NCBI GenBank assembly: GCA_035352635.1
Contig: DAOPYA010000004.1
Span: 3,733 to 67,732 of the forward strand
Reading direction: 5' to 3'
Origin: Candidatus Rifleibacterium sp.
Lineage (GTDB): Bacteria > Muiribacteriota > Ozemobacteria > Ozemobacterales > Ozemobacteraceae
Length of the DNA: 64,000 nt
Numbering within the stretch: position 1 is the stretch's first letter; each line of letters opens with the position of its first letter. Under the pieces are notes generated by a model. That model saw nothing but the letters and a program-made list of their open reading frames with translations, made no database searches and was not told the DNA's origin. A program made the position numbers and the translations under genes. Below are positions 3,419-52,089 of this stretch, piece by piece.

Positions 3419-3430
3419 GCAGGTCTCCTT

Positions 3431-4753: not shown

Positions 4754-4754
4754 A

Positions 4755-5564: not shown

Positions 5565-5566
5565 GA

Positions 5567-7419: not shown

Positions 7420-7449
7420 TTTCTTCTCCTGTTGTGTAACTGCCTGCTG

Positions 7450-8610: not shown

Positions 8611-8674
8611 AATTTGACTATTTTATCACAACGCCAGGCGCATTTAAAACAGCAGTTTTGAAAATTTAAAGCTT

Positions 8675-9613: not shown

Positions 9614-9614
9614 T

Positions 9615-10292
9615 TCAGATTTTCCTGATCTGGTAGTCCTGGGAAATATTCAGCCATAAAGCAATCAGGTCTGGGTCAAACTGCAGCCCTGACTGCCTCT
9701 CAACTTCGGCGTCAATTTCCTTCATATCGGTATAGTTTCTGTGGCGATAGGGCCTGGTGTGACGCATGGCTGAAACCGCATCGGCCAGAGCCAGTATTCT
9801 GGCCGCCTTAGGGATTTCTTCGCCCTTGAGATTGTCAGGGTAGCCAAGACCATCCCATCTTTCATGGTGCCATCTTATAATTGCCGGCACTTCGTCAGGC
9901 GTTTCAATACGGGTTTTCAGATGCAATTCGCCTAAGATAGGGTGGGTGCGCATGAGATCGACACGCTCATCATCGAGCCTTTCTGAGGTTCTGAGAATGT
10001 CTCGCGGCAAAAGCATCTCGCCGATGTCGTGCAACATGGCCGCTGCGCGAAGACTTTGCAATTGCTCTGCGTCAAAACCGGCTGCCGCGCCTATTTTTTC
10101 GGCAGTATCAGCCACTTCAGCCGAATGAGCAGCGTCATAGCCCTCAATGCGATCAACAATTGAGGCAACTCCGGCCAAAAACTGTGCGTAACGCCCCTCA
10201 ACCGGCCCGGTACGTTCGCGCAGCTCGAAATAGCGATAAGCCAGCCAGGTAATGAGAACGATCAGAGCTGCATTAAAAAGGGTTATAAGCAT
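9615..10292 (-). CDS. HD-GYP domain phosphodiesterase (putative c-di-GMP hydrolase) with a single N-terminal TM helix
   Basis: HD motif (MLHDIGEMLLP) and RWHHERWDGLGYPDNLKGEEIP (HHExxDGxGYP) are present. The N-terminus LITLFNAALIVLITWLAY is hydrophobic. No receiver domain. Confidence 0.8.
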   Translation of the reverse strand: MLITLFNAALIVLITWLAYRYFELRERTGPVEGRYAQFLAGVASIVDRIEGYDAAHSAEVADTAEKIGAAAGFDAEQLQSLRAAAMLHDIGEMLLPRDILRTSERLDDERVDLMRTHPILGELHLKTRIETPDEVPAIIRWHHERWDGLGYPDNLKGEEIPKAARILALADAVSAMRHTRPYRHRNYTDMKEIDAEVERQSGLQFDPDLIALWLNISQDYQIRKI

Positions 10293-10294
10293 GC

Positions 10295-10948
10295 TCAGAA
10301 ACCGAAGTTCGCGCCAACAATATAGCGGTGCCGATCATAAACCCGGCTTGGGGTGTACAAACCGAAATCGAGACTGAGAGCTTCATCGAATGCATGCCGC
10401 AAGCCAATGACAAAATCATTGCCGGCATAATCAATAGTAAGTTTTGTATCAACATCAATATTGAGATTGGCACCCATGATGAAAAACACCGGATCGACAT
10501 CGGCGCCCTTCTGGCTGTAACGGCCAAAAGCTGCTTTCTTTTCATCAGGATTCATGGCGATATTGGTGCCAACTCCAAGCACTACCCGATTACCGGGCAT
10601 GCCAGAAAGCAGCATAACTGAGTCCTGGTAGCCTTCGTTCGGGTCAAGAACTGCAGCCACCGCCATATTCTCACGCACTTTGTATTTGCCGGCAAACAGA
10701 GGTTCAGTCTGCTCAGAGCGACCACGAATTGCAAATCTTTTGACAATCGCAACTTCAGAATCGTCTGAGAAAGCGAAAACCCCTTTAAAAGTGGCTTCAT
10801 TGAATTCGGTCTCACCGATCATGTGCACCGCAGCCCGTGCTGCACCGGGGGGCAGAACCTCAAGACCCGGAACAATCATCGTGCCGCTCAGACCATGTAC
10901 AGTCGCATTGGCAAACACCGGGGTCGCTGATGCAAGGAGCATCAGCAA
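10295..10948 (-). CDS. Small outer-membrane beta-barrel protein (OmpW/OmpA-like size)
   Basis: The ORF track extends it to 11086, overlapping the upstream TPR gene. The more likely start is an internal ATG/TTG giving a signal peptide ...LLMLLASATPVFA. Alternating amphipathic strands and a C-terminal ...GANFGF ending in Phe are typical of OMPs. The exact start is uncertain. Confidence 0.45.
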   Translation of the reverse strand: MLMLLASATPVFANATVHGLSGTMIVPGLEVLPPGAARAAVHMIGETEFNEATFKGVFAFSDDSEVAIVKRFAIRGRSEQTEPLFAGKYKVRENMAVAAVLDPNEGYQDSVMLLSGMPGNRVVLGVGTNIAMNPDEKKAAFGRYSQKGADVDPVFFIMGANLNIDVDTKLTIDYAGNDFVIGLRHAFDEALSLDFGLYTPSRVYDRHRYIVGANFGF

Positions 10949-10982
10949 ACAGCATGCAACAAAAAAGCCCGAAACCGACCCG

Positions 10983-12185
10983 TCAGTAACCCTCGATTTC
11001 CTGGAGTTTCTGCCGGATATTGTCGGCTTCACTATGATTGGGAAATTTTCGGAGAAATTCCTCATAGGAGGCTCGGGCCTTGTCATATTCTTTCAGTTCC
11101 TTTTCATAGAGTTCGCCTTTGCGCAGGAAGGCATCTGCTGATACATCGGCATCGGGGAACTTTTCGGTTACCGAATTATAATAATCAATGGCTTTTTCAA
11201 CATTCTCGGTACTCTTACGATAGCGAATCTTACCATCGATAACCTGAGTCTTCATTGAGTCCATGTCTTCTTCGTAGATGCGACCCAGGCGATAAACCAG
11301 ATCTTCGTTACCCTGCGCGTCAGGGTAACGCTGCATCATTTCTTCGAGGGCCTTGGCAGCGCCTTCATAATCTTTTTCTTTTTCTTCGAGCATGCCGATG
11401 AGCTTCCGGTAACCAGAGATCGCATCATCTGAATCGGTGCTTCCCTGAATCGCTTTTCGGTAGGCGGCAGCCGCATCCTTGAAGTTGCCGGCCTCAGCCT
11501 GCATATCGCCAAGATCCATGTTGGCTTTAACTTCCTGAGTGTTATCAGCATCGGCGGCAATGTTGGCCTGGGCTGCGATTGCGCCTTCCTGGGCAGAGGT
11601 GCCAATAGAGAGTTTTTTCATTTTTTCCTGGGCCGCCGGTACGAATGTGCTGTAACCGTAATCGGTAACAATCTTTTTGTAATTGGTAGCGGCCTGGTCG
11701 TACATTCCCATGGCTTCCTGGCAGGTGGCCAGGTTGTAATAAACCTTGTCTATGGCCAGAAAAGCCGGGTGCTCTTCAATAATTTTGTTATAGATATCAA
11801 CGGCCATAACATAATTTTTGATTCTTTCTTCGTAAATTCTTCCAAGGTCATACAGCGTTTTAGGCAATTCGGGGCCGCTCACCCCACCTGCATTGATGCC
11901 GTTATTGAGCATATCAGCGGCTTCGCTGAAATGAGCCAGAGAATTACTGAGTTCTGCCTCTGCCTGTTTAATGCGGATTTTACCGATTTCTACCATGGCC
12001 GGCGAATGAAACTTGCCGTTGCCAAGCAAAGTTTTAAGCTCTTCAATTGCCTGTTCATAGGCGCCCTGCGCCAGTGATTGCATGGCCTTTTGATATTCTG
12101 GAGTTGATTGTATTGGTTGAGCACCAGCTACATTCAACATCAGGGAAAACATAACCAGAACCATGGGAATAATAATACGTTTCAT
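10983..12185 (-). CDS. Periplasmic/lipoprotein-like TPR-repeat protein
   Basis: Signal peptide MKRIIIPMVLVMFSLMLNVAGA. Multiple TPR-like repeats run throughout the 400 aa. Confidence 0.7.
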   Translation of the reverse strand: MKRIIIPMVLVMFSLMLNVAGAQPIQSTPEYQKAMQSLAQGAYEQAIEELKTLLGNGKFHSPAMVEIGKIRIKQAEAELSNSLAHFSEAADMLNNGINAGGVSGPELPKTLYDLGRIYEERIKNYVMAVDIYNKIIEEHPAFLAIDKVYYNLATCQEAMGMYDQAATNYKKIVTDYGYSTFVPAAQEKMKKLSIGTSAQEGAIAAQANIAADADNTQEVKANMDLGDMQAEAGNFKDAAAAYRKAIQGSTDSDDAISGYRKLIGMLEEKEKDYEGAAKALEEMMQRYPDAQGNEDLVYRLGRIYEEDMDSMKTQVIDGKIRYRKSTENVEKAIDYYNSVTEKFPDADVSADAFLRKGELYEKELKEYDKARASYEEFLRKFPNHSEADNIRQKLQEIEGY

Positions 12186-12281: not shown

Positions 12282-13163
12282 ATGATTAAAAACCTGTTAA
12301 ATCTGCAAAAAGATTCTGCCGATAGTAATATCACGGACTGTAGCGGATCGTGTAACTACCCGGAGATGGAATTCAAACTTCTGCCGCTTGAAAAAGTCTA
12401 CCCGAACCCGAATCAGCCCCGCAAGATCTTTGAAAAACAGGCATTGGAAGACCTGGCCCAGTCAATACGCGAAAACGGCGTTCTGCAACCAGTTCTGGTC
12501 AGGCAGATCGGCGAGCGCTATCAGATCGTTTCAGGTGAAAGACGCTTTCGGGCAAGCAAAATTGCCGGCATGAACAGCATTCCCGCGGTCATTCGCAAAC
12601 TCGACGAAGAAAAAACGATGCTGGCAGGGCTGATCGAGAATATTCAGCGCCAGGATCTCAACCCGATCGAGGAAGCCCGAACCCTCAGAGACATTCTTCT
12701 GAACTTCGGGCTGACACATGACCAGCTCTCAGAAAAGGTTGGCAGAAGCAGATCAGCGCTCACCAACAGGCTCAGGCTGCTGCAACTTCCCCCTGAAGTT
12801 CAGCTGATGGTAGCCGATGGGCAAATATCGGCCGGGCACGCCAAAATGCTGGCTGGGCTTAAAGAACCCCATGAAGCGCGGCAATGGGCCAAAAAAATCA
12901 TCACCGATCAGCTATCGGTATACGAAACCGAAAAACAGATCGCCCGTGAGAAAACCGAAAATTCCAGTGTCTGTCCGAAGAAAGGCAGATTGTTGATGAA
13001 TTCAGATATGCATGTCAGAGCGGTTGAAGAAAACCTTCAAGAGCTGCTTGGCGCGAAGGTTCGCATTCGTCAGGGCAAAAACAAGGGCCGCATCGAAATT
13101 GAATTTTACGACAGAGACGATCTCGAGAGAGTTGTAGAGTCAATGGTTTCGGTGTGCCTGTAA
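12282..13163 (+). CDS. parB: Chromosome-partitioning protein ParB/Spo0J (orphan, no adjacent parA)
   Basis: ParB box GERRFRASKIAGMNSIPAVIR, an HTH region and a C-terminal dimerisation region. The more likely start is the internal ATG at about 12366 (MEFKLLPLEKVYPNPNQPR). The gene upstream is on the opposite strand, so there is no soj/parA partner in this window. Confidence 0.85.
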   Translation: MIKNLLNLQKDSADSNITDCSGSCNYPEMEFKLLPLEKVYPNPNQPRKIFEKQALEDLAQSIRENGVLQPVLVRQIGERYQIVSGERRFRASKIAGMNSIPAVIRKLDEEKTMLAGLIENIQRQDLNPIEEARTLRDILLNFGLTHDQLSEKVGRSRSALTNRLRLLQLPPEVQLMVADGQISAGHAKMLAGLKEPHEARQWAKKIITDQLSVYETEKQIAREKTENSSVCPKKGRLLMNSDMHVRAVEENLQELLGAKVRIRQGKNKGRIEIEFYDRDDLERVVESMVSVCL

Positions 13164-13185: not shown

Positions 13186-14073
13186 GTGATCATTAATTTC
13201 TGGGGGGTCAGAGGCTCGATTCCTGTCCCTGGCAAAGATACCGTCGAGTTCGGCGGCAACACCACCTGTATCGAAATTCTCACCTCATGCGGGGAGAGAC
13301 TGATCTTTGACGCCGGCACCGGCATCAGAGTCTTAGGCAACTCCCTGATGAAACAAGAATTCGGCGAAGGAAAAGGCATGGCGCATGTTTTCTTCACCCA
13401 CTCCCACTGGGATCACATACAGGGCTTCCCCTTTTTCGCACCCGCCTATGTCGGCAAAAAAGACACCAGGGGCACCCGGGTAGAAGATGCCTGCAATGTT
13501 TTCAACCTCTACGGGGCGACCGACGTTGGCAACCGCATCGAAACTACATTGCGCGGCCAGATGGATAACGTTTATTTTCCTGTCGATCTGAACTACCTGT
13601 CTTCGGTCATTAATTTTAAAACTCTTATCGATAATAAAACCAGAATCGGCAATGCCACGATAACAGCTTTCATGCTGGTGCATCCAAACGGCGTTCTGGG
13701 TTACCGCATCGAAGAAGATGGCAAATCAATAGCAATTGCCACTGACTGCGAGCATCCAACCGACGGTTCGATCGATCAGAATCTCTTGAAACTGGCCAGC
13801 AATGTCGACATTCTCGTCTATGACGGCCAATACACAAGCGAAGAATATACCCCGCATAAATTCAACCTCCCAGGCCCTGGTCGCCAGGGGTTCGGCCATT
13901 CAACCCCCGATGAAGGGATAAGAGCAGCCAAAGCCGCCGGGGCTCGCCGTCTGCTCATCACCCACCACGACCCGCTGCACAATGATGTAAGACTTCGTGA
14001 AATGGAAGCCCGGGCAAAGAATCTTTTTTCAGCCACAGATTTTGCCCGCGAAGGCATGTCGATCGAAATTTAA
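13186..14073 (+). CDS. MBL-fold metallo-hydrolase
   Basis: HxHxDH motif (FFTHSHWDHIQG) and downstream His/Asp ligands. 295 aa. Confidence 0.75.
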   Translation: MIINFWGVRGSIPVPGKDTVEFGGNTTCIEILTSCGERLIFDAGTGIRVLGNSLMKQEFGEGKGMAHVFFTHSHWDHIQGFPFFAPAYVGKKDTRGTRVEDACNVFNLYGATDVGNRIETTLRGQMDNVYFPVDLNYLSSVINFKTLIDNKTRIGNATITAFMLVHPNGVLGYRIEEDGKSIAIATDCEHPTDGSIDQNLLKLASNVDILVYDGQYTSEEYTPHKFNLPGPGRQGFGHSTPDEGIRAAKAAGARRLLITHHDPLHNDVRLREMEARAKNLFSATDFAREGMSIEI

Positions 14074-14112
14074 ACCTTTTTGTAGTTACGGCCCTGCCGT
14101 GTATGCTATGAT

Positions 14113-17100
14113 GTGCACAACATGGCACGGGCTTCCTTCACAACTCCAGTCTATTTCTTTACCTCTATTAGAGCAGGTTCCGGCAAGGCTTCGATTGTTG
14201 CGAACCTGTCGATTTTCCTTAACAGCCTATCACAAAAGGTTGCCCTGATTGATCTTGACGGCGAAACACCACTAAAACTCAAGAATACTTTTCCGCAATC
14301 AATCAATCTCCAGGCTTACGCAGACCTTGGTCAACTGGCTCGCTCTGACGAGAACCGCTTTCAGAAAAACTTCTATTTTACCGAAACCAGCCAGATTTCT
14401 TACTTCCCCGCCCAGAAACTTGCTGACCCTGCTTCCCTGTTCACCGACACCTCGCTGCGCGATTTTTTCATTCAGCTTAAAGCAAGCTTTGACCTGGTTA
14501 TCATCAATTTTCCTGCGGGCATCCAGCACTGCCAGAAAACTTCCGAACTCCTTTCCAGAAGCCACTTATGGCGTGGCAGTCGCCCGATTTCCCTTATCGT
14601 TTCGCAATCTGACGAGAAAAGCCTGGTCACCCTTGATAAAATGCTGCAACAGAACCCGGCATTCTCTTATCAACTCCAGGAAAACACCTGCCTGATTTTT
14701 AACAGGGTTCCATCAGCACCTGATGAACAACACCTCGCCGGCACAACCCTCAGCGGGCACGAACTTCGCCAGATTTTTGATCAGCCCAACAGCTATCTGA
14801 TTCCGGTCTGCGAAGAATTCGTGCTGCAAAGGCATCAAAGCGGAGCAACCGTTTTAAAATCGGATTCTCTGATGCACCAGACCATTTCCGGCCTGAACCG
14901 TCTGCTGGTTCACAGTGGCGATAATCCGCTCAAGCAGCTCAGCGCCCGGCCAAACGATTATCAGGCCTGCCTTGACGGCGAACTGCTCGAAAAACTGACG
15001 CCATATCTTGAAAGAATACAACTGGCGGCCGCAGCCCGGCTTTATGTTCACCCGTCTGAGCTTCAGGTCTTTCTCGAAGAAGGGCCAGAGAACTTCCGTA
15101 TCCGACTGAGAATCTCAGGAGTTAACCAACCACTGCTTGGTATCAACACAAGAATCCGCCAGGAACCCCTCTGTCAGCTAGTGCAGCGCAGCTCTCCAGA
15201 TGCTTTTGCTCAGACGGGTCTGACCGACGAGAATTCACCGGTAATACCTGCCGGACGCGTGACAATCTCAGCTATCAGCATGCGACCGGTTTACAAGTTT
15301 CCAGACAATTTCAGCTGCCAGGCAGACCCCAGACTGCACCCACAGCTTGATCTGCTACCCGACAAAGCGCCGAGACCATCGCCAATCCTCTTCAAACAGC
15401 AACTTGATCTGCCCGAGGTACCATCGCTTTCGCACATACTCGGTTTTACCCGCCGACAATATCGACAGTTTCAGTTCACCTCGCTTGAAAAGCATCTCAC
15501 CACCGGCAGTGTTACTCATTTTTTTCTGCCGCCCGAATTCGACCTCAGCTGGTCAGCCACCCCGTTTTTTGACGAAATCTTTGCCTGCAATCTGGCAGCG
15601 TGCCAACGCACAACCCTCAATCACCCGATTGTTTTCGCTCTGGCCGATCAATGGCCCGACCTGCGAAACGCTGCGGCACCACTGCTCTTCGATATCTTCG
15701 CCCGCCACCAGTCGCTATACGCAGTATCAGCTCACCAGATCAGGGAAACCATACCACCGCCGGCCGACTTCGCCAGCGCCAGTCGTCGCTACACCGGAAG
15801 CCTGCTGGAAAGCTCTATTTGGCCAGTGCCATGCCGGTTTCTGGCGCCACAACCTTCGGCATTGCTTCTTAAGAGCGCAGAACTGATAGCCATCATGCCC
15901 TTGTGGGTCGCTGAATCAACAAATGAGCCAGAACCGCAAGAAAGCCTGCGGAATCATTTCAGAATGCATGTTTTGCAGGAATACGAACGTTTCAGCCTTG
16001 ACGTTCCGTTGCCGCGACCTTTTTTTGCCGAACCGAGCGGCAAAGTGCCTTCAATGAGCATGGAATCCTGCGTTTTTTTCTCGCTCCATGCCTGCGAACA
16101 AACAGGTGCGCCAGTTGCTCCGACCCTCTGCGAAAATTTCCGCAGAGCCTTGCGCGAATCGCCTTCACAACTAAGCTTTATGCAGCAATGCTTAAACAAA
16201 AAAGAAGCATGTATTGCCCCACCTGATGTCAGATTCCCTGAAGCCTTTAAATGGGAAGACCTGCTCATGGAGCACGTTTATCAAGACGTCAAACAAATTG
16301 TTACCGGGCGCAGTTTTTTGATCAACCCTGTAAAAGCCCTTTTTTCATTCAAACCCACCCACCCACTCTTCTTCAGGCTCTCATTTAAAGGGTTTCGCCA
16401 GGATGTCATCAACAGTGAACTCCCGGTTCCAAAGGCCGAAGTCAAATTGTCTTTCCGCTCCCCCGCCGCCGCGCTAAAAGTTGTGGCCTTTAAATTTTCA
16501 GCAGGCCCGGCCAGATTGATTGACGATCTTTTGCCCGTTAAATACCGACACCAGAAAGACCTCGGGCACCGCGATGCCTTAGATCAGTCAGTCTACAAGA
16601 GCGACCGGGTAATCGACAGCGCAATAAAAAACCGCAGACTTGCTGCCAGCAAAGGTCGCATGCTGCAGATAAATATTCAGAGCGGTAATCAGCCGGCTTT
16701 TTCAGCCAAAACATCGGCACAGAAACTAAAAACAACGACCACGACAATGAAGTTTGCCCCGATGGTTCTATTAAACAAGGCGATAAACGTTGCGAACATC
16801 GCCAGAGAATGCCAGCTTGACCACCTGCCATCTGATCTATTCGCCAACTACAAGCCATTGCCGACCATTCAGAACGGCAAAGAATTTTCGGCCGCCCATA
16901 ACCGGAAAGTCCAGACAAAATCTCTATTCGCTATTGAACCGGTCGAGTTAACCACAATTTCGACAAGAAGAGATACCCAGAGGTTTTTTGCTTTTCCTGG
17001 AAAAGGGGTCTCGCTGCTGATCACCTATCTGCCAACCATAGCCAGGAGGACATTCAGATTGCCTTCTATCAACGGAAACCACCCCGAATTTGCTATCAAC

Positions 17101-17703
17101 CACGATCAGATTCAGCTGCCCGCTGCCCTTCCCCTGCGCAATCGCCGGGTCGAGTTTCCTGATCTGAACCGGGCGAACGACAAACAATTTTCCCTCAAAA
17201 TCCAGTGTGATATGCATGCCATTATTCACAAGACTGGAGCAATGAATGAAAACATCCTGGAACGAGCCAATCGAAGCCAACGCCCGGCCGAACGGATGGC
17301 CAAAATGCCAATGCGCTACCCGTTAGCGATATCTGCCCAGCGCTCCCTGCGCAGCCTCCCCCTTAAAAAGTCGACTTTTTTTATCAGGTTTCCTGACATT
17401 ATCGAGGTATTTTATGAGCATCTGCGCTGGTCTCTACGTGATGAACGAGTCAGCGGGCTTGCTTTTATTGACCATTTCAAGAATCAGAAAGCTGAAGGGA
17501 AATTGCCGGCCTTTTTAATCAGACAAACCCTGCGCCTGGCCTGCCATGTTGATTTCCGAGAAAGATTAGCCCTTTTCAACCGTTTCGACAAAACCGCCCG
17601 CGAAATTTACCCGATCAGCAATCTCAGATTGCGCGACCTAATGAACCTGGCCAGGCAGACAAACCAGAAATTCAATGAAGTAAACCAGAAGATACGGGCA
17701 TGA
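14113..17703 (+). CDS. Giant protein (1196 aa) with a degenerate N-terminal MinD/ParA-like domain and about 1000 aa of unknown function
   Basis: N-terminal 200 aa align by eye to MinD: VYFFTSIRAGSGKASIVANLSIFL...KVALIDLDGE against IIVVTSGKGGVGKTT...VIDFD; SYFPAQK against LYILPASQ; FDLVIINFPAGIQ against FEFIVCDSPAGIE; LIFNRVP against LLTRYNP. The Walker A is degenerate (IRAGSGKAS). Codon preference matches neighbouring genes. No other frame in the span has a long ORF. Confidence 0.6.
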   Translation: MHNMARASFTTPVYFFTSIRAGSGKASIVANLSIFLNSLSQKVALIDLDGETPLKLKNTFPQSINLQAYADLGQLARSDENRFQKNFYFTETSQISYFPAQKLADPASLFTDTSLRDFFIQLKASFDLVIINFPAGIQHCQKTSELLSRSHLWRGSRPISLIVSQSDEKSLVTLDKMLQQNPAFSYQLQENTCLIFNRVPSAPDEQHLAGTTLSGHELRQIFDQPNSYLIPVCEEFVLQRHQSGATVLKSDSLMHQTISGLNRLLVHSGDNPLKQLSARPNDYQACLDGELLEKLTPYLERIQLAAAARLYVHPSELQVFLEEGPENFRIRLRISGVNQPLLGINTRIRQEPLCQLVQRSSPDAFAQTGLTDENSPVIPAGRVTISAISMRPVYKFPDNFSCQADPRLHPQLDLLPDKAPRPSPILFKQQLDLPEVPSLSHILGFTRRQYRQFQFTSLEKHLTTGSVTHFFLPPEFDLSWSATPFFDEIFACNLAACQRTTLNHPIVFALADQWPDLRNAAAPLLFDIFARHQSLYAVSAHQIRETIPPPADFASASRRYTGSLLESSIWPVPCRFLAPQPSALLLKSAELIAIMPLWVAESTNEPEPQESLRNHFRMHVLQEYERFSLDVPLPRPFFAEPSGKVPSMSMESCVFFSLHACEQTGAPVAPTLCENFRRALRESPSQLSFMQQCLNKKEACIAPPDVRFPEAFKWEDLLMEHVYQDVKQIVTGRSFLINPVKALFSFKPTHPLFFRLSFKGFRQDVINSELPVPKAEVKLSFRSPAAALKVVAFKFSAGPARLIDDLLPVKYRHQKDLGHRDALDQSVYKSDRVIDSAIKNRRLAASKGRMLQINIQSGNQPAFSAKTSAQKLKTTTTTMKFAPMVLLNKAINVANIARECQLDHLPSDLFANYKPLPTIQNGKEFSAAHNRKVQTKSLFAIEPVELTTISTRRDTQRFFAFPGKGVSLLITYLPTIARRTFRLPSINGNHPEFAINHDQIQLPAALPLRNRRVEFPDLNRANDKQFSLKIQCDMHAIIHKTGAMNENILERANRSQRPAERMAKMPMRYPLAISAQRSLRSLPLKKSTFFIRFPDIIEVFYEHLRWSLRDERVSGLAFIDHFKNQKAEGKLPAFLIRQTLRLACHVDFRERLALFNRFDKTAREIYPISNLRLRDLMNLARQTNQKFNEVNQKIRA

Positions 17704-20700
17704 CCCTGAAGATTCCTTTCAGATACTTTCTTCCCGTCCTCGATGCTCCGGCAAAAAGACCGGGAAAAAAGGTTTTTGTAACCAGAAGGCCGATAAGCCT
17801 TGCCGGCAAGCCTTTGCTGGCCGAGAAACACCTGCCGGTGCAACCATCTTTTTCTCTTGCAGCGCGCAAATGCTACGCCACCACTGTTGCAGCCCTTTTT
17901 AAGCAGGCAAAAAGCATTGCGCGAAAAACCAGATTTAAACCAGATTTCAGCTTTATAAAATACGAACCGCTGGTTTTTGAAAATGCCAGGTCAGGTTTTT
18001 TTTCTACCCCAGGGTTGCCTGACCCTGAGCGATGGGCCGGGCATATTATCGAACCAGCGACCGGCCTCAAACATTCCGGCCAGTCAGAAAGATTGGCCAT
18101 CAGCGTTGATACTAATCCGCACCTGGCATTTACCATTGCAGATCATCCTGACCCCGAAAACATCCTGTCTGGCTTTCTTCAACGCTTTTCAGAGCCGGTC
18201 ATGTTGCCTTCGCCCAACGAAAAAATTGGTCTTTCCGGTCAGGAAACCTTTATTGAACCGGTTACTGCCACGCCTTGCCCGGCCCGGCTCATAAATCTGG
18301 CCATTTTTGAATCACGCAAAAAATTTATCTGCCGGCGCCCCAGCCTTAATCAGACTTTTTCGTTTGCCGGGGCTGAGCACAACTTTACTCTTTTCTGGCC
18401 AGAAGTCTCTTTCGCACTCGCACCGGCCAATCAAAAGCCGCTCAAAGACCTTACAGAACCGGATTACAGCCTTTTTCGTTCGCAAAAATTCATTGGTTTT
18501 GGCTTTTTTCTGAAGCTTGATCGGGCAAAGAATGGCCCTGAACGCGAAATTCTTGCCAATTTTCTTCTCGAAAGCAAGATTGTCTTTTCGCCGGTCTGCG
18601 ACAACCTCATTCATTCAAGCATTGGAACCCCCCACCAGAGCAGTTGTCTGCAAGATTCACGTGGTAACCTTACCCCGAAATTTAAATCAGAGGCATCCAG
18701 CATTCCTTTAAGGGGCCTTCCCAGCTATCTCCCGGCTGACATCAAGATATCTGGAGCCAGAAAGGCCACCATGAGCCTTTGCCTGCCACCGGCACGACCC
18801 GCCAATCTTTGCCGAACCCATGCCCGCCACGGAAACTTTCAGATTGCCGACCATGCGTGCCGTCTAAAACTCAGGCTTAAACTGCGGCGCATGAACCCGT
18901 CAGCCCCCGATACCCGCCTGAAAGTGATGGTTCCTGCCGTATCGCTAAGGCCAGCCACCCGGCCCACAGGCTTTTTACAGGCCAGTTACAAAGAAATCCG
19001 CTCAAAAAACCCGATCTGCAAAAGTTTTGAGCACTCTGATGCAAGCATTGGCCGACCGCCGGCCAATGATTTTCACCAGAAGCGCAGTCAGTTTTATATT
19101 CGCGCCGCAAGGCACGCGCAATATACTCTGCGGCTTCTGAAAAACATATTTACCGCTAATCAGCACCGGGCAAGCAATCAGGTCATGCTGAACCACATGT
19201 TAACAGCAATGCCCGAGCTAACATCAACCGCAAAGAAACTTCGCCAGCCCGCTGCTTTCAACCCATTTTCCACAAAGCTTTCTTTGACTGCCAGCCCCGC
19301 CAGCAAAATTGTCAGCTCAACCGTTGCCCTTGCAGAAAGAAAACTGCCACTGAGTCTGCTCGCAGGCCGAGCTTGTTTTAATGATATCTGCACTCCTGAA
19401 CAACCCAAAAAAATTGCCACCGTAACCACTCAAAGCGCCAACCTTCATCATGAAACCCATGCAAAGCGCACCCGAACCCTGCGAATGCTGCGCTTCAAAC
19501 TGCATCCAGTCAGCACCGCCAACCTCTCATACCGGAATAGCCCGGCACGGTCGATAGGCTGTGCGCGAATTTCGGCAGCGATTATTTCGCGGCGTGCCCA
19601 GAAGGTCAATCTGCCGGCCGGCGAAACCATGGCCATTAAATTGCGCGACCGACAACTCCAGGCCAGGCACCGCCTCCGTTTACGCAAGGTCGCCCTAAAA
19701 ATTGATCTTCCAGGGCAGATTAAACCGAACATGACCCTGCTTCTCGGCATCGAAGGCACAGATGCCCCGACGACCCTCTGCCAGAAACATTTTGTTTACC
19801 CCAGCATCTGGAAACGAAAACAGCGATCGTTCAACTGCCGACTTTCTCTGCTTCCCCATCCGTTCGGCTTCCCTGACTTTTGTTTTTCAGAAAATGTATT
19901 TTCATGCCTGGTAAAGCCAGTGGCTTTAACTATTCCGCTACCGGCCAGGCAAAAAGCAATGCTGACCGGTAGTTTTGTCATAAAACGCGAAAAGATTTTT
20001 TTGCCGCCGCTAAGCATGAAAGCGCCACGCCGCCTGCTCTACAGCCTCAGCATGCCGCATGAGCTTAAAGAGATTTTCCGCGCCCCTCGGCTTATTACAA
20101 CTACACAGCTGCAGCCCGCACCTGTTATTGGCTCTTTCACACACACCTGGCTGTGCAACCCTAATCCCCGAAAGATTTCTGCAGATACCGGCATGCGTAT
20201 GACCAGAACCCGGCGGCATAAAAGCAGCAGTTTCGTAATGCCTGATCGAGTAATTAAGAGCCATACCTTTCTGGAAACAGCCGAAGCGCCTTCCTGGCTC
20301 GAATTACCTCTGATAAAACGAATGTTGCTACGGGCCAGACGCTTTGCCACAACCCGACAATCAGCAAATTTTTGCCCTGTCAACGGGCCAACCAGTCAGC
20401 GGTTTTTGCCAGCCATTGCATTGCCTGCCATTGCCAAACCATTGCAAAGACTCAATCTCGCAGGGTTCAGTCTTTTCACACCGGTGGCCCGACATTTTCT
20501 GCATTGCTGGCCGCTTGTTGACCGGCTTCGTTGCCCGGTCGATGACGGTAACCGCATGCGTTTGCGTTCCTATCGATTCCCATGGCATCCCGAAATGCCA
20601 CCGACAGGGCAACACAGCCTCAGCTTCAGCGACCGGCCGAGCTCCAACCAGACCCACAGCCTTGATTTTGCTGATGAAGTCAGAGCTGCATCATTTTTCT

Positions 20701-21632
20701 TCCCATGGATTGACCAGATAAGCATAGCAAGTGCCTACCGGAACACTGACTCTGCAAAGGGTTCAAAACCGGTTACCACCGTCTTAAAAGAAGTTAATTC
20801 TGCCCAAGCAACGTTTCTTGGCCGCCCGATCGGCATATTTGCCGGCATGCAACTCAATATTCCAAGCTTCAATCAATTCATTGACCCAGCAAATTTCTTC
20901 TGCTGCAACGAAAAACCACCGGCACCAATGCAAAAAACACGACGGCACTACAGTTTAAAGCATGCAACCCGGCGAATTCAGCCCGAAAACGTGATACTCA
21001 ATTACTCAGAATACAGCCTGCAAAGTGCACCCGGTGCAACCTTACCAATGGATCCCCTGCATTGGATAATTCTGATGCGCAGTTTTATCAGTGCCAGGCC
21101 ACCGGCCCTCGATTACCAGTTTGCGGCCACCTGCGCAACAAAAACTTCTTCGCCAACCCATGGCAAACCCTTTAATACCAGTTTCCCGGCATCTTTTAAC
21201 CATGTCGGGGATGCCCCCCTTACAGGTCATCTCAATCAGGATGCGCAGCAGACCATGCCTTTGTGCCTTGCCAGCCTGACCGCGAATTTTTATGCCCTGC
21301 CGCTAAGATTAACCAGGTCTGAGATTGCAGCACCTGAAATACTTGACGAAAAATTTGCCCAACTGGTTCACAAAGCGGTTTTTTCGGCACACCATGAAAC
21401 GGGAACTCTTTTTGAATTGCATCGGAAAAGCATGTTGCTGCCGGCAGCCACAGATCATTATACGTTGGCAACGCTCGCATGCGCCACGCACATCCCCGCC
21501 TTTAAAATTTCTGCCCGGCGTGCCCCGTTTATTCCAGATGCGCGTCTCAATCTAGCGCCCGCTGGCTACAAACATGCCAGTCTGCCCGACTGGATTGACA
21601 GCCACCACGAAAGACCTGGCCTCAATCAATGA
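17700..21632 (+). CDS. Giant protein (1310 aa), extremely basic Arg/Pro/Ser/Thr/Ala-rich, unknown function
   Basis: The ATG overlaps the upstream TGA (ATGA), suggesting translational coupling with the 1196-aa ORF. A 3.9-kb frame with no stop cannot plausibly arise by chance at this GC. Codon preference (ccg, gcc, acc, ctg) matches the genome. No recognisable domain. Very few acidic residues. No long repeats. Confidence 0.55.
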   Translation: MTLKIPFRYFLPVLDAPAKRPGKKVFVTRRPISLAGKPLLAEKHLPVQPSFSLAARKCYATTVAALFKQAKSIARKTRFKPDFSFIKYEPLVFENARSGFFSTPGLPDPERWAGHIIEPATGLKHSGQSERLAISVDTNPHLAFTIADHPDPENILSGFLQRFSEPVMLPSPNEKIGLSGQETFIEPVTATPCPARLINLAIFESRKKFICRRPSLNQTFSFAGAEHNFTLFWPEVSFALAPANQKPLKDLTEPDYSLFRSQKFIGFGFFLKLDRAKNGPEREILANFLLESKIVFSPVCDNLIHSSIGTPHQSSCLQDSRGNLTPKFKSEASSIPLRGLPSYLPADIKISGARKATMSLCLPPARPANLCRTHARHGNFQIADHACRLKLRLKLRRMNPSAPDTRLKVMVPAVSLRPATRPTGFLQASYKEIRSKNPICKSFEHSDASIGRPPANDFHQKRSQFYIRAARHAQYTLRLLKNIFTANQHRASNQVMLNHMLTAMPELTSTAKKLRQPAAFNPFSTKLSLTASPASKIVSSTVALAERKLPLSLLAGRACFNDICTPEQPKKIATVTTQSANLHHETHAKRTRTLRMLRFKLHPVSTANLSYRNSPARSIGCARISAAIISRRAQKVNLPAGETMAIKLRDRQLQARHRLRLRKVALKIDLPGQIKPNMTLLLGIEGTDAPTTLCQKHFVYPSIWKRKQRSFNCRLSLLPHPFGFPDFCFSENVFSCLVKPVALTIPLPARQKAMLTGSFVIKREKIFLPPLSMKAPRRLLYSLSMPHELKEIFRAPRLITTTQLQPAPVIGSFTHTWLCNPNPRKISADTGMRMTRTRRHKSSSFVMPDRVIKSHTFLETAEAPSWLELPLIKRMLLRARRFATTRQSANFCPVNGPTSQRFLPAIALPAIAKPLQRLNLAGFSLFTPVARHFLHCWPLVDRLRCPVDDGNRMRLRSYRFPWHPEMPPTGQHSLSFSDRPSSNQTHSLDFADEVRAASFFFPWIDQISIASAYRNTDSAKGSKPVTTVLKEVNSAQATFLGRPIGIFAGMQLNIPSFNQFIDPANFFCCNEKPPAPMQKTRRHYSLKHATRRIQPENVILNYSEYSLQSAPGATLPMDPLHWIILMRSFISARPPALDYQFAATCATKTSSPTHGKPFNTSFPASFNHVGDAPLTGHLNQDAQQTMPLCLASLTANFYALPLRLTRSEIAAPEILDEKFAQLVHKAVFSAHHETGTLFELHRKSMLLPAATDHYTLATLACATHIPAFKISARRAPFIPDARLNLAPAGYKHASLPDWIDSHHERPGLNQ

Positions 21633-21882
21633 TGATTTTTCCAAAGGCTCATTGAATATTTTAAAGCAATGCGGCTGACAGGCCGCGCCATCGACAGCAA
21701 TTCTCGGTGAGTTTTGTAACTCGCATCAAATGCCACTTGTGCTTTACAAGTTGTCTTTTAAAATGGGCAACTTCGGCCTATCAGCCGGGCTGCTTTTGAC
21801 CGAGAATGACTACGCCTCAAATCGGTGCGAGACACTTGATGCGTTCTTATATAAAATACTTGTTGATTCATCGCCTCATGCG

Positions 21883-21911
21883 TTGACTTGCATGGTTAAA
21901 GGCATTAGAAT
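21883..21911 (+). promoter_or_regulatory. Sigma70-like promoter for the PP2C/coiled-coil/TPR operon
   Basis: TTGACT, a 17-nt spacer, then TAGAAT. A GGGAGA Shine-Dalgarno follows 7 nt before the ATG at 21940. It lies in a 300-nt intergenic region after the giant ORFs. Confidence 0.4.
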
Positions 21912-21939
21912 GCCGTGAGTTGCAAGTGGGAGAAAAGAA

Positions 21940-22734
21940 ATGAGTTTTTATACCCTTAGTGATAAAGGCAAAGTTCGCCCGAACAATGAAGACTATGCCG
22001 AGAGTATGTCTTTGATCTTGTGCGGGCCAGCAGGTAACCAGATTGAACTGACGGCCCTGATCCTGGCCGATGGAATGGGTGGCGCAGCGGCCGGTGAATT
22101 TGCTTCGATGCTGGCCGTGCAGACAGTCAAAGAGAATCTGGTTCGCAACCTCTTTGAAAAACAGCCCGAAGATCTTTTGAATACAGACAAAACGCTGCTT
22201 CTTGAAGAATGGTTTCAGGGCGCCAACCTGGCAATCTTTAAAGAAGCCAGTCGGAATGCCGAAAAAGAAGGCATGGGCACCACAATTGTCGGGGGGATCA
22301 TCTACCGCAATGGCATGGCCCTCGCTCATGTCGGCGACAGTCGGGGTTACCGGTTTCGCGAAGCGGCCCTGACGCCGATCACCAAAGACCACTCACTGGT
22401 CCAGGAATTTATCGACATGGGTCGGATAACCCCCGATGAAGCCTTTGTGCACCCTCAACGCAACGTTATAACCCGCGCCCTCGGGATTGGCGACTCGGTC
22501 AAGGTTGACCGCAAGAACCTGCCCCTGGAATACGGCGATCTGATTCTCTTCTGCACTGATGGCCTGTGCGGCTACGTCGAGCATAAAGACCTTGAAGAGA
22601 TTGTTAACAGCGAGTACAAACCTGATGGCACCGACCTGAAAAAGCTTGCTGAACTCCTGGTTAAAGGGGCCTGTTTGAACGGCGGCGGTGATAACATAAG
22701 CGTCTGCCTGTATCAGCACCTTCAGAAGTTTTGA
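21940..22734 (+). CDS. PP2C-family Ser/Thr protein phosphatase
   Basis: The metal-binding motifs ADGMGGAAAGEFAS and DGLCGYV are present. The size (264 aa) is typical of Stp1/PrpC-type phosphatases. Confidence 0.75.
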   Translation: MSFYTLSDKGKVRPNNEDYAESMSLILCGPAGNQIELTALILADGMGGAAAGEFASMLAVQTVKENLVRNLFEKQPEDLLNTDKTLLLEEWFQGANLAIFKEASRNAEKEGMGTTIVGGIIYRNGMALAHVGDSRGYRFREAALTPITKDHSLVQEFIDMGRITPDEAFVHPQRNVITRALGIGDSVKVDRKNLPLEYGDLILFCTDGLCGYVEHKDLEEIVNSEYKPDGTDLKKLAELLVKGACLNGGGDNISVCLYQHLQKF

Positions 22735-22738
22735 ATAA

Positions 22739-24355
22739 ATGAAGCAACAGCTCGACAATTCCGAACCAGGCAGCCTGCCACAAAAACTTGAGGCTGTCAG
22801 GGATTACTTGCGTCACCTGCTGAAACTGGCAAGGGTTCTGCCAGAAACAGAAGAAAACAGTCAGTTGCTGAATAGCCTTGCCAGGCTTGGCGAGATTGAC
22901 TTTGCCACCCTGATCGACGAATCCGAAACTCTGATGCGGGTGGCTTCAAGCCCCTCTGACCTCGAAAAATTCCGCCAGGAAATCGATGTCAGGGAACAAA
23001 AAATATATGAATTCAAAATGAGTCTTGCCGACTCAGTTATCGATTTAAAAAATGCCCAGAAGGCTTCAATTACTGCGGGCGAACAAAGTGCTGCCCTGAA
23101 CGCCCAGGTCACGCAGATGCAGTTGCATACTAAAGAACTTGCCCTGCGCCTGGCCTCAGCCACTTCAAGCCTCGAAAAACGCGAGAGTGAACTCGAAGTC
23201 GCCCACCGCGAACTCGATGAACTGCGCAGCCGTTCATACCAGTTAAAAAGTCAGAATGTTGAATACGAGCGCCATCTGAAGTTCTCGGCCGAACAGGTCG
23301 AACAGGCTGAAAAAGAGCAGAAATCGGCATTTGCGATGCGCGAAAAGGCCGAAAAAGATCTCGAACATGTAATGACCAGCAACCGCGAAATGAAAAACTC
23401 GCTCGAAAACCTCGAAATGCGCGAACGCGAACTGGTAGAAACTATCGATGTTCTGCAAAAAGAGCGCAACCATTTGCAGAACCGCCTGAGCAGCCTTTTA
23501 ACTGGCTTCAACCGCACGGTTTCGCACAGTCAGTCCACTGGTTATGCCACACAAAACGCTGTGCTCGAACCGGCAATCCTCAACCCTTACCTGCCGTTCT
23601 GCTTTCCAGAGCGCTTACCCGCCGCAATTAAATTTCGCCGCGAAATAGATACAAGTTTTCCGGCTTCTTATTCGCGCAGGGTGCCCAAAGCCCCGCCGGT
23701 ATTTATAAGCCTTGCCAAACCTGCTTACCCTGGCAACGAGGCAATCAGATCGCAAAACCGTCCGCCACGCATCAAGCCGACACCCAAAAAAGAACTTGCC
23801 CTGGCGATGTTGCCATCAAGGCCAAGAAGGGTATTGATGCCCTACCAGGCCGCTTACAGCATCGATCAACTTGCCAGAGTTTCTGTTGAGTTTAAACAGG
23901 GTCAGCCGGCCAGGGTTGTCGCACTTAAGCAGATCTGGTGGCAGAAGACTGCGAAGCTTTATGGCATGAATATGAAAGCCGCGCATAATCATGCCTTTGC
24001 CATCATCAGTAACTCTTTCGATCTCTATTTACAGTTTTTGATTTCTACAATTGTCAGACAGAACGATATCCCCTCTGAATCAAGACTGGAACACATCTTG
24101 AACGGGAACAAAAAGAATCGTTCTGTCGAAAAGCTTGATCTGGCAATTAATTTTCAGGAAACACTTGCGTTCAGACACCGGTTGCAACTAAAATCCACTA
24201 AGCTTGAAGCACCCGGGGCAACTCTGCAGCAAAGCTTTAAACGCGGCAACAAGCTGAAATCAGTTCTTGAGACGTTCGGCAACAAGATCAGTTCAATAGT
24301 GAACCAATTAGAAAGTATCCCGAATTCGCGATCAGACAATGGCGAAAAACAATAA
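22739..24355 (+). CDS. Coiled-coil protein (N-terminal 250 aa heptad-rich, C-terminal Pro-rich region)
   Basis: Long Glu/Leu/Lys/Arg/Gln-rich segments (ELEVAHRELDELRSRSYQLKSQNVEYERHLKFSAEQVEQAEKEQK). It starts 5 nt after the PP2C stop. Confidence 0.55.
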   Translation: MKQQLDNSEPGSLPQKLEAVRDYLRHLLKLARVLPETEENSQLLNSLARLGEIDFATLIDESETLMRVASSPSDLEKFRQEIDVREQKIYEFKMSLADSVIDLKNAQKASITAGEQSAALNAQVTQMQLHTKELALRLASATSSLEKRESELEVAHRELDELRSRSYQLKSQNVEYERHLKFSAEQVEQAEKEQKSAFAMREKAEKDLEHVMTSNREMKNSLENLEMRERELVETIDVLQKERNHLQNRLSSLLTGFNRTVSHSQSTGYATQNAVLEPAILNPYLPFCFPERLPAAIKFRREIDTSFPASYSRRVPKAPPVFISLAKPAYPGNEAIRSQNRPPRIKPTPKKELALAMLPSRPRRVLMPYQAAYSIDQLARVSVEFKQGQPARVVALKQIWWQKTAKLYGMNMKAAHNHAFAIISNSFDLYLQFLISTIVRQNDIPSESRLEHILNGNKKNRSVEKLDLAINFQETLAFRHRLQLKSTKLEAPGATLQQSFKRGNKLKSVLETFGNKISSIVNQLESIPNSRSDNGEKQ

Positions 24356-24375: not shown

Positions 24376-26514
24376 ATGAAACGCACTTATCTGCAGGATG
24401 AAGCCAATACCCACTATAATCTGGGTATAGCCTATTACACCAAAGGGCAATATGAACAGGCGATCAACGAGTGGGTTCAGTCACTGATCAAAAACCCCCA
24501 GAACAGCGAGGCGAGGTTCAAACTCGGCGTCGCCTACTATCAGCTGAATCGCATCGATGAGGCCCTCAAGGAATGGGAAATCGCGGTTTCACTTGATCCG
24601 CAGAACTACGAAGTGCTGCATAACCTTGGTATCGCCTATTACAACAAGGGCGAAGACATGCGGGCCATCGACTACTGGGAAAAATGCCTCGAAGTTCGCG
24701 GCCACGACCCCGAAATTCATTTCAAGCTCGGCATTGCCTACTATAACCTCGGCAAAGAAGACCAGGCCATCTCACTCTGGGAAAAAGCCGCCAACCTCAA
24801 CCCCGAAGACTCAGATATATTCTTCAGACTGGGGGTTGCCTATTACAACAAGGGCCTCGACGACAAGTCGGTTATTGCCTTCTCAAAAGCCATTGAACTG
24901 AACCCGAAGAATTCAGAATCACATAATAATCTGGCAATCGTTTTTTACCGCCTCGAAATGTATCAGCAGGCCATCGAAGAATGGAAAAAGGCGCTGTCGC
25001 TCAACCCCCGCCAGCCCGAAATCTTTAACAACCTTGGAAACGCCTACAGCAAGCTGAACCAGCACCGCGAAGCCATCGAGACCTGGCAAAAAATCCTCGA
25101 TATCACTCCCGACAGTTCAGAAGTGTATTTCAAGCTCGGATCCGCCTATGGCAAACTCGACGACCTGACCCGGGCCATCAGCAGCTGGGAAAAATGCATT
25201 TCTTTGAACCCGAACGATGTTGAAGCACACTTTAACCTCGGTGTGGCTCAGTATAACTCGGGCAATTTTCAGAAGGCGATCACCTACTGGAACACCGTCA
25301 GAGAAAAGCGCAGCGAAGACGCTGATATCTGCGAAAAAATCGGTAACGCCTACTGCGGTCTCGAAGACTTTGCCGAAGCCGCCAAGTTCTGGAACCGCGC
25401 CATTTCTTACGTCAGCGATGACCCGCAGCTGCACCACAAGCTTGGCATCGCTTATTCGAAGCTCAACAAAACCCAGGAAGCTATTTTCCAGTGGCAGAAA
25501 GCCATCGAACTCGACACCGACCATTTCGAAGCCCACCACAACCTGGGTATCGCCTTCTACAATCTGCAGCGCTTCGACGAAGCACTCACCGAGTGGGAAA
25601 AATCGAAAAACCTGAACCCGACCGACCCCGATCTGTTTTTTAAGCTCGGCCACGCCTACCGCCAGAAACGCCGCCTCGACAACGCGATCTTCAACTGGAA
25701 AAAGGCAATTGAACTTGACCCCAACAACCCAAATACCTATTTCGTGCTTGGCAACGCTTTTGACGAAAAAGGCCTGCTCGATGATGCGATTCTTTCGTGG
25801 CGTAAGGTTATCGAACTGGCTCCCAACGATGTTGATGCGCACAACAACCTTGGCATCGCATATTTCCAGAAGAATATGTTCGATCAGGCCATCTCAGAAT
25901 GGGAAGACGCCATCAGAATCACCCCCGAAAACGGTGAACTCTACAACAAGCTTGGCATCGCATACATCAAGATGGAACTGTTCGACAAGGCTGTAGAATG
26001 CTGGGAAAAGGCCCTCAAATACAAACCTGAAGATTCAGATATCCTCTCTAACCTTGCGACTGCCTACCACAACCGCGAAATGTATGACAAGGCCATCGAA
26101 ATCTGGAAACGCGTCATCAAATACAACCCCCAGGATTCAGAAGCACGCAACAAGCTTGGTATCGCCTATTACAACAAGGGTATGTATGATCAGGCCATTG
26201 AACTCTGGAAAAAAGCCATCGAACTCAACCCCAAAGACGCTGCCGCTTATTACAATATCGGCACCGAAGAGTTCGAAAAAGGCCGTATCAACGAAGCAAT
26301 CACCGCTTACATGAAAGTGCTCGAGATTGACCCGAAGTTCGTGCAGGTCTATTACAATCTGGCGATCATCTATGCTCGCAAACGCCAGTTCAGAGACGCT
26401 ATCGACACCGCCAGAAGATTTCTGCACACCAACCCGACCGGCGTCGAAGCCGACAACCTCAAAACCCTCATCGAACAGTGCGAAAAAGAAATGGAACAGG
26501 AAGCCGAAGTCTGA
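24376..26514 (+). CDS. TPR-repeat protein with about 21 highly regular tandem TPR units
   Basis: The 712-aa ORF is made of near-consensus 34-aa units (AIxxWxKAIELNPxxxEAxxNLGIAYYNxGxYDx) repeated head to tail across the whole protein. Confidence 0.85.
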   Translation: MKRTYLQDEANTHYNLGIAYYTKGQYEQAINEWVQSLIKNPQNSEARFKLGVAYYQLNRIDEALKEWEIAVSLDPQNYEVLHNLGIAYYNKGEDMRAIDYWEKCLEVRGHDPEIHFKLGIAYYNLGKEDQAISLWEKAANLNPEDSDIFFRLGVAYYNKGLDDKSVIAFSKAIELNPKNSESHNNLAIVFYRLEMYQQAIEEWKKALSLNPRQPEIFNNLGNAYSKLNQHREAIETWQKILDITPDSSEVYFKLGSAYGKLDDLTRAISSWEKCISLNPNDVEAHFNLGVAQYNSGNFQKAITYWNTVREKRSEDADICEKIGNAYCGLEDFAEAAKFWNRAISYVSDDPQLHHKLGIAYSKLNKTQEAIFQWQKAIELDTDHFEAHHNLGIAFYNLQRFDEALTEWEKSKNLNPTDPDLFFKLGHAYRQKRRLDNAIFNWKKAIELDPNNPNTYFVLGNAFDEKGLLDDAILSWRKVIELAPNDVDAHNNLGIAYFQKNMFDQAISEWEDAIRITPENGELYNKLGIAYIKMELFDKAVECWEKALKYKPEDSDILSNLATAYHNREMYDKAIEIWKRVIKYNPQDSEARNKLGIAYYNKGMYDQAIELWKKAIELNPKDAAAYYNIGTEEFEKGRINEAITAYMKVLEIDPKFVQVYYNLAIIYARKRQFRDAIDTARRFLHTNPTGVEADNLKTLIEQCEKEMEQEAEV

Positions 26515-52086: not shown

Positions 52087-52089
52087 GAC

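Follow-up and report, generated by a model that had tools for sequence, protein, structure and literature searches.

ATPases of the ParA/MinD type work with partner proteins such as ParB, MinE, PomX/PomY and McdB, and ParB, MinE and PomX act on these ATPases through N-terminal peptides that are short and positively charged (PMC13170346). Here we describe a gene that resembles these partners in some respects and departs from them in others: it lies at positions 17700-21632 (+ strand) of a 64,000-nucleotide stretch of Candidatus Rifleibacterium sp. (GenBank assembly GCA_035352635.1, contig DAOPYA010000004.1; “the window”), encodes a very basic orphan protein of 1310 amino acids (aa), and overlaps the end of a giant gene that carries a degenerate MinD/ParA-like P-loop domain. 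We see an even chance that the basic protein pairs stoichiometrically with the MinD-like one, in a polyanion-bound module that is specific to the phylum and organises the chromosome or the cell.

The resemblances to the described partners lie in both context and sequence. The gene adjoins, and is apparently translationally coupled to, a MinD/ParA-like P-loop gene; the best-conserved part of its product is an N-terminal segment that is short and carries positive charge; and a parB gene is part of the same cluster. Further, like the scaffold partners PomX/PomY and McdB as they have been described, the product is a large and basic protein that evolves fast and has little predicted structure. It differs from ParB, MinE, PomX/PomY and McdB in that it has no sequence similarity to any of them and, at 1300 aa, is several times larger. 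The neighboring P-loop domain differs as well: its signature Lys is replaced by Arg and its Walker B Asp by Asn, and approximately 950 aa of other sequence are fused to it, so that an ATP-driven gradient of the kind used by these systems may not operate.

The upstream gene (14113-17703, + strand, 1196 aa as listed in the open reading frame (ORF) list, and supported by library scans and synteny) probably starts at the ATG at 14122 rather than at the GTG at 14113, since its homologues begin at MARAS. The MinD/BcsQ likeness of this pair of genes belongs to the upstream protein and not to its basic neighbor: the N-terminal ~150 aa are MinD/ParA/BcsQ-like (regions of the P-loop, switch I and Walker B), and the ~950 aa that follow belong to no recognised family. 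Over aa 15-150 there are matches to Pfam CbiA/BcsQ and TIGR MinD/BcsQ models with E values of 1e-3 to 8e-6 (TIGR01968, E = 8e-6). These matches are weak, and in the window copy they do not reach the cut-offs of Pfam and NCBIfam (25 bits against a cut-off of 213 for TIGR01968), with Pfam CbiA above threshold in one fetched locus (L017). An alignment with an approximate MinD sequence extends over the P-loop, the IDLD of switch I and the FDxVxI[DN]xPAG of Walker B. The upstream family as assembled from the fetched loci comprises nine sequences, in all nine of which the signature Lys of Walker A (RAGSGK[AS][ST]) is replaced by Arg and the Asp of Walker B (FDxVxINxPxG) by Asn; in most members the P-loop Ser/Thr is replaced by Ala. 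A deviant Walker A ATPase that is competent for catalysis is marked by its signature Lys, its P-loop Ser/Thr and its Walker B Asp; the upstream protein does not have this set, and it also differs from MinD and BcsQ in its long C-terminal extension. The first ~480 aa of the family are highly conserved, and there is a conserved C-terminal segment (LRLRDLMNLARQTNQKFxEVNQKIRA); a profile of the family found no PDB chain at E <= 0.1. Paralogy of the two giant proteins was considered and rejected (hhalign probability 0.1%).

The stop codon of the upstream gene and the start codon of the gene for the basic protein overlap as ATGA (17700-17703, + strand), and this overlap is present in 16/16 loci across the phylum; no Shine-Dalgarno sequence is evident before the second gene. 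Such ATGA overlaps are typical of termination-reinitiation coupling and of subunits that are made in a fixed ratio, and the arrangement implies that translation of the basic protein would be coupled to that of the MinD-like one. The wider gene order is equally stable: the window and eight fetched loci, including the 23%-identical one of Candidatus Rifleibacterium amylolyticum, all show ParB, a metallo-beta-lactamase-fold protein, the MinD-like protein (1192-1203 aa), the basic protein, a PP2C phosphatase, a coiled-coil protein and a TPR protein, in that order. There is no canonical ParA gene either beside parB or within the 64-kb window, and the degenerate upstream giant is the one gene near parB that resembles ParA/MinD.

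The 1310-codon frame, which the original prediction had given with the coordinates and length that we find, opens with ATG and is a genuine gene under purifying selection. It has no stops in 1310 codons (probability by chance approximately 6e-24, from the local base composition), as compared to 46 and 57 in the other two + frames; the three - frames have 37, 37 and 74, and the longest competing ORF in any other frame over the same stretch is 125 aa. By hexamer (dicodon) score, trained on the other 40 ORFs of the window, the annotated frame is the best of the six. The earlier judgement that it was unlikely to be non-coding was therefore upheld by frame preference, codon usage, dN/dS (0.22-0.26) and 36 full-length homologues, and neither of the things that would have spoken against it, statistics favoring another frame or orthologues ridden with indels and frameshifts, was found.

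Some features could still be read as signs of a spurious or decaying ORF, with the true feature on the opposite strand, in a different frame or in non-coding sequence. The hexamer score, 0.033, is the lowest among the window genes (0.14-0.62 for the others); the coding strand is unusually G-poor (GC skew approximately -0.15 to -0.20); and in one related contig (L021) the genes are in pieces. The low hexamer score, however, stems from the odd amino acid composition and not from a lack of coding function, as synonymous codon choice is normal: the codon-adaptation comparison that had been proposed gives an index of 0.666 for this gene and 0.71±0.03 for the window genes, and its relative synonymous codon usage correlates with that of the other window genes at 0.78 (0.79-0.87 for long genes). 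The skew is shared by just the two giant genes (-0.14 to -0.20 over 14000-22000, roughly -0.02 to -0.13 elsewhere), both of which have C-rich, G-poor mRNAs. As for L021 (ENA; 3061-10593), the two giant genes are there distributed over five ORFs, and this is most likely due to indel errors of a long-read assembly and not to biology, because the neighboring upstream gene is fragmented too. Against the length of the open frame, its retention at full length in about 36 lineages and its normal codon usage, with no Rfam family in or beside the gene or anywhere else in the window, this explanation is effectively refuted already; other frames and the other strand, all stop-filled and with lower hexamer scores, were rejected as the true gene. 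One of the five ORFs on L021 (P0046) is an apparent in-frame fusion of the upstream and basic proteins; it was discarded as “Rosetta-stone” evidence since both genes are chopped on this contig.

A search of 5.8 billion proteins returned 13 relatives (1291-1318 aa, 27-36% identity over the full length), one entry among them being the identical protein from a “Candidatus Rifleibacterium sp.” metagenome-assembled genome (MAG), and 1.84 billion cluster representatives, searched exhaustively with a profile, gave 42 matches, 29 of them with E < 1e-30. Nearly all of the approximately 36 full-length members are 1283-1336 aa long, and they diverge down to ~15% identity with the window protein. With one exception, the named sources are Candidatus Riflebacteria, Ozemobacteraceae or Candidatus Rifleibacterium amylolyticum. 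The exception is a 2-kb contig in an “Erysipelotrichia” MAG (L019, 992-1165) carrying the N-terminal motif of the family at 52% identity, probably a piece of a Riflebacteria genome that was binned wrongly. With its spread over the phylum, its divergence down to ~15% identity, and a length and synteny that are kept, the family must be old: judged from these sequences, it is restricted to the candidate phylum Riflebacteria, and ancient. Of the earlier suggestion of a recently evolved, lineage-specific gene, then, the second half agrees with the homologues found in the lineage and the first does not.

No family in Pfam, NCBIfam, PADLOC or PHROGs matched the basic protein, and the 13-sequence profile found no PDB chain at E <= 1. 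An origin in phage, defence systems or mobile elements was rejected, given the lack of PADLOC and PHROGs matches and the invariant synteny with housekeeping genes across the phylum. The sequence of the protein is already public as “hypothetical protein,” and we found no published description of the family. An orphan family in this phylum is not surprising in itself, because Riflebacteria are among the groups with the highest counts of novel families per genome, with 26 synapomorphic families (PMC10849945); our family has the hallmarks of these FESNov synapomorphic families (restriction to one phylum, purifying selection, conserved context), and the likeness is one of hallmarks.

Selection on the protein is purifying throughout. 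Four pairs gave dN/dS of 0.22-0.26 (Nei-Gojobori), including one pair with unsaturated dS (0.27; dN/dS 0.24), and gaps are rare: none over ~1300 residues in a pair with 62% identity and one in a pair with 68%. By segment, dN/dS is 0.05 in the N-terminal 60 residues, 0.08-0.16 in the motif-rich parts and 0.24-0.32 in the most variable ones, and no segment approaches neutrality.

The extreme composition claimed for the protein was confirmed when computed, with a pI of 10.3 (the highest among 42 window ORFs), a net charge of +90 and few Asp, Glu, Trp or Tyr; an excess of Phe and a shortage of Gly and Val had been overlooked. Its abundant residues are Leu (10.8%), Ala (10.0%), Pro (9.1%), Ser (8.2%), Arg (7.8%), Thr (6.3%), Phe (6.3%) and Lys (5.7%), and its scarce ones Glu (3.5%), Gly (3.5%), Val (3.2%), Asp (3.1%), Tyr (1.5%) and Trp (0.8%). 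The pairs RR, RxR and HH, which had been called frequent, are not enriched: they occur 10, 10 and 3 times, as compared to 8.0±2.6, 7.8±2.5 and 1.7±1.3 in shuffles of the same composition. Two of the three peptides that had been quoted as examples are exact (aa 658 and aa 959), and the third was wrong by one letter, the actual sequence at aa 832 being MRMTRTRRHKSSS. The protein is not of low complexity (mean 3.37 bits per 20-aa window), and internal repeats were rejected, since 11 blocks of the family alignment, compared profile to profile, gave a best probability of 6.5%. There is no signal peptide and no transmembrane segment (maximum KD19 1.32, too low for a membrane span), so that the protein is predicted to be cytoplasmic. 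That it binds a polyanion, a part of the original prediction that stands, is a reasonable inference from a charge of +90 in a chain with neither of these features.

Basic composition is a trait of the whole family, nearly all of the full-length members having a pI of 9.0-10.8 and contents of 1-4% Gly, 2-5% Val and 6-9% Phe. AT-rich members have Lys in place of Arg and still retain the basicity and the shortage of Gly, Val and acidic residues, for which reason GC or mutational bias was rejected as the source; from this pattern, the odd composition is evidently a selected one. Chlamydial Hc1/Hc2, protamine-like proteins and the extended tails of ribosomal proteins, which associate with the nucleoid or coat nucleic acids, are also very basic, and they are small and/or built of low-complexity Lys/Arg/Ala repeats. 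With these proteins our protein shares the very high pI, the large net charge, the few acidic residues and the little predicted secondary structure; unlike them, it is 1300 aa long, complex in sequence and rich in Phe, Leu and Pro, with unique motifs at fixed spacing.

Those motifs were mapped in alignments of 13 and 36 family members, with spacings measured in the 36. About ten short conserved islands stand at nearly fixed distances amid fast-evolving yet selected sequence. The most conserved part is the N-terminal module (aa 1-60; 17700-17879, + strand, as are all the motifs), with the consensus LPV[LF]DxP..G..F.TRR..S.AGKP.LAEK[HN]LPVQPS..RKCY, in which D15, R30 and C58 are invariant. Its first 50 aa carry a net charge of +8, and R29/R30 and K57 are invariant or nearly so; the charge seen at the N-termini of ParA/MinD partners is thus present here too, in the slowest-evolving segment, a likeness of property and not a proof of function. 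Hydropathy in this module correlates at 0.56 between distant pairs. It is followed by LKLRLKLRR, with alternating basic and hydrophobic residues (aa 389-397; 18864-18890), and (R)HA[QR]YTLRxLK (aa 471-481; 19110-19142), both from the conservation scan of 36 sequences, and by LRxLRFKL near aa 597. The core motif SFxCRLxLLPHPFGFPxF (aa 710-727; 19827-19880) has L717, P719, F722, G723, F724 and P725 invariant in 36/36, and FLPPLSMKxPRRLL (aa 763-780; 19986-20039; K774 and P776 invariant) stands 51.0±0.2 residues from its PFGFP. Further along are LIKRMLLRA(RRF) (aa 871-879; 20310-20336; LLLRARRF near aa 877), RxRSxRFPW/YxPE (aa 953-964; 20556-20591; R956 and P964 invariant), PLHWII(L/M)MRS (aa 1119-1128; 21054-21083) and, at the C-terminus, P[DE]WID....RP (aa 1296-1306; 21585-21617). 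Pro, Phe, Gly, Arg, Leu and Lys account for most of the invariant residues; in the family alignment only two Cys are conserved, and neither an acidic nor a His cluster is.

Other distances between anchors are 42.8±0.6, 31.9±0.7, 44.3±1.0 and 81.1±1.7 residues, and for most intervals the standard deviation is 0.2-3 residues. This holds even for the C-terminal variable stretch (aa 1131-1290; 21090-21569), which has ~13% identity among distant members and a dN/dS of 0.32, yet keeps an anchor-to-anchor length of 170.5±3.0 residues. Length that is conserved while sequence diverges recalls the tape-measure proteins, and the basic protein might be a fixed-length extended spacer or molecular ruler in which total length, and not sequence, is selected. 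The narrow range of lengths among members down to ~15% identity and the unalignable 170-residue stretch held to ±3 residues are in keeping with such a role, and the variance summed over the spacings (353) is about twice that of total length (182), a hint of compensation. This variance test, however, is a small one without correction for phylogeny, and the spacings show a mean correlation of ~0; the variable regions are still at a dN/dS of ~0.3; and the long helical or coiled-coil prediction of tape-measure proteins is missing, the only helix being one of 22 residues. No length-controlled structure is encoded near the gene among the window genes, and we know of none in the Riflebacteria. We regard a ruler as very improbable.

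The original prediction also spoke of a disordered scaffold, and here the evidence divides. AlphaFold2 gave a mean predicted local distance difference test (pLDDT) of 34.1 and a predicted template modelling score of 0.18 for residues 560-1310 (8 sequences), and of 39.3 and 0.25 for residues 1-1135 (36 sequences). The models are coil nearly throughout; values of 50-60 are reached only at the N-terminus (50-61 in the N-terminal module) and in the helix at aa 470-491, the sole helix with some confidence, which the (R)HA[QR]YTLRxLK motif begins. Neither alpha nor beta amphipathic periodicity rises above shuffles (hydrophobic moment; z 0.2 and 0.9), and the controls in the window (a TPR protein, the coiled coil and the Ig-domain protein) are positive. 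These results fit a scaffold that is intrinsically disordered and binds a polyanion (it might form condensates, as partners of the McdB/PomY type do) and in which only the charge and short linear motifs matter, and so do the 9% Pro, the net charge, the conserved islands between poorly conserved stretches, and a rate of evolution that is the fastest in the cluster: between the window and locus L002, aa identity is 29% for the basic protein, 46% for the upstream protein, 48% for the coiled-coil protein, 82% for the metallo-beta-lactamase-fold protein, 85% for PP2C and 97% for the TPR protein.

Composition and spacing speak against disorder. With H = 0.471, the charge-hydropathy index lies on the ordered side of the boundary by 0.033; TOP-IDP averages 0.105, and no 21-aa window exceeds the cut-off of 0.542; order-promoting residues make up 29.7%, as compared to 32.9% in the other window proteins; Phe, Leu and Ile occur in abundance; and the Phe and Gly contents of the family are the opposite of those of typical disordered regions. 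Disordered proteins are expected to tolerate indels, and here there are 0-1 gaps at 62-68% identity, within a narrow range of lengths and with spacings that are kept at ~13% identity, in variable parts that (at a dN/dS of 0.24-0.32) are not neutral. Moreover, alignments of 8 and 36 sequences are too shallow for AlphaFold2 to tell disorder from a fold that it has not learned. A disordered scaffold is therefore an unlikely reading, if one that deserves real weight.

The same observations could be explained by a folded multi-domain protein of novel architecture, an enzyme or structural subunit unrelated to its MinD-like neighbor, for which prediction would fail only owing to the small size of the family. 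Its hydropathy is ordinary, its length and spacing are fixed, its indels are rare, and purifying selection extends over the full length; in pairs with less than 25% identity the hydropathy patterns agree (r 0.18-0.56, ~0 in shifted controls), an agreement that is in part an alignment artefact. On the other hand, secondary-structure periodicity is missing, the AlphaFold2 models are coil almost everywhere, the invariant residues (with the two Cys and no acidic or His cluster) are not a typical catalytic set, and the invariant ATGA overlap points to a functional link with the upstream gene. We think such a protein distinctly unlikely. The chain may be extended and templated by its partner, or may have a fold that is not yet predictable.

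In the partnership that we propose, the basic protein would be made in a fixed ratio with the MinD-like protein and act as its physical partner, and the pair would serve a phylum-specific module that organises the chromosome or the cell interior. The large positive charge would hold the basic protein on a polyanion; DNA is the first candidate, because ParB and ScpAB are encoded nearby, with RNA or acidic membranes as alternatives. The conserved, basic N-terminal 60 residues would be the most likely contact with the P-loop domain, on the analogy of ParB, MinE and PomX, which address ParA/MinD ATPases through basic N-terminal peptides. It can be speculated that other short motifs could dock the TPR proteins of the cluster and that the Ser/Thr-rich chain could be a substrate of PP2C.

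Several points weigh against this partnership. The mechanism is drawn from gene order and charge alone, and no homology ties the basic protein to any function. The likeness to MinD is weak: the domain of the window copy does not reach the cut-offs, and its family profile has no PDB match. With its signature Lys changed to Arg, its Walker B Asp to Asn and its P-loop Ser/Thr often to Ala, a classical partner-stimulated ATPase cycle may not exist. The module would be at most a divergent variant of the ParA/MinD-plus-partner logic, its basic member not assigned to any known partner family. Adjacency to ParB could reflect conserved housekeeping synteny only; a gap of 110-300 nucleotides (nt) lies between the gene and that of PP2C, so that co-transcription with the downstream genes is no more than a possibility; and AlphaFold2 gave no structure of the basic protein and hence no interface to examine.

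A bolder version of the partnership, which we consider improbable, is that the two giant genes encode a new heteromeric assembly: a hydrolysis-dead MinD-like protein would nucleate a fixed-length, non-globular cationic chain along DNA or a large RNA, in register, as a ruler or scaffold for chromosome organisation, possibly replacing the canonical ParA beside ParB and under the control of PP2C and the TPR proteins.

If the partnership is true, Riflebacteria would have a very divergent form of the ParA/MinD-plus-partner logic for positioning chromosomes or large complexes, made up of a P-loop protein with altered catalytic residues and a cationic protein of 1300 residues that is unlike the described partners. 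If the basic protein is merely another orphan structural protein, the value of the finding is limited to a correct annotation, that of a real, ancient and phylum-specific gene. It is nonetheless an above-average orphan, combining a selected extreme composition, rigid length and spacing, and failed structure prediction with invariant coupling to an altered MinD-like giant beside ParB and a place in a phylum-wide seven-gene cluster. It also makes a test case: a protein that is long, hydrophobic enough to fold, rigidly spaced and under selection, yet invisible to homology search and to AlphaFold. The conserved cluster offers a concrete and experimentally approachable entry into the unknown families of this phylum.

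The remaining members of the cluster lie on the + strand as well. The first gene encodes a ParB/Noc-like protein of ~295 aa with N-terminal, helix-turn-helix and dimerisation domains (12282-13163; library scans and synteny), followed by the metallo-beta-lactamase-fold protein (295 aa; 13186-14073; library scan and synteny). Always directly downstream of the gene for the basic protein is that of the PP2C-type Ser/Thr phosphatase (264 aa; 21940-22734; library scan and synteny); the intergenic gap before it (21633-21939) is 307 nt in the window and ~85-195 nt in the other loci. Next come a helix-rich, coiled-coil-like protein (538 aa, ~535 across loci; 22739-24355) with weak matches of the SMC/Rad50/CreS type and, at the end of the cluster, the TPR protein (712 aa, ~18 TPR repeats; 24376-26514; library scan and synteny). 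The last of these evolves at a dN/dS of 0.008-0.02, far more slowly than PP2C or the metallo-beta-lactamase-fold protein.

Just upstream of the cluster, the other strand carries genes for two TPR proteins, an HD-domain protein, trpS, scpA and scpB; scpA and scpB (4755-6436, - strand; library scans) are ~6 kb from parB. Four further conserved ORFs in the window have no Pfam or NCBIfam match: 8675-9613 (-), 10295-11086 (-), 26733-28808 (+) and 624-2246 (+). The first two (312 and 263 aa) are syntenic across loci and flank the HD-domain gene, and such unmatched but conserved ORFs fit the reported richness of Riflebacteria in unknown families. The window also has genes for type II/IV secretion (ATPase and platform), two proteins whose N-termini bear methylation motifs of the pilin type and a 1289-aa Ig-like/fn3 protein, these secretion, pilin and Ig/fn3 genes being at 50353-54213 (-), 29199-29816 (+), 61972-63453 (-) and 58079-61948 (-).

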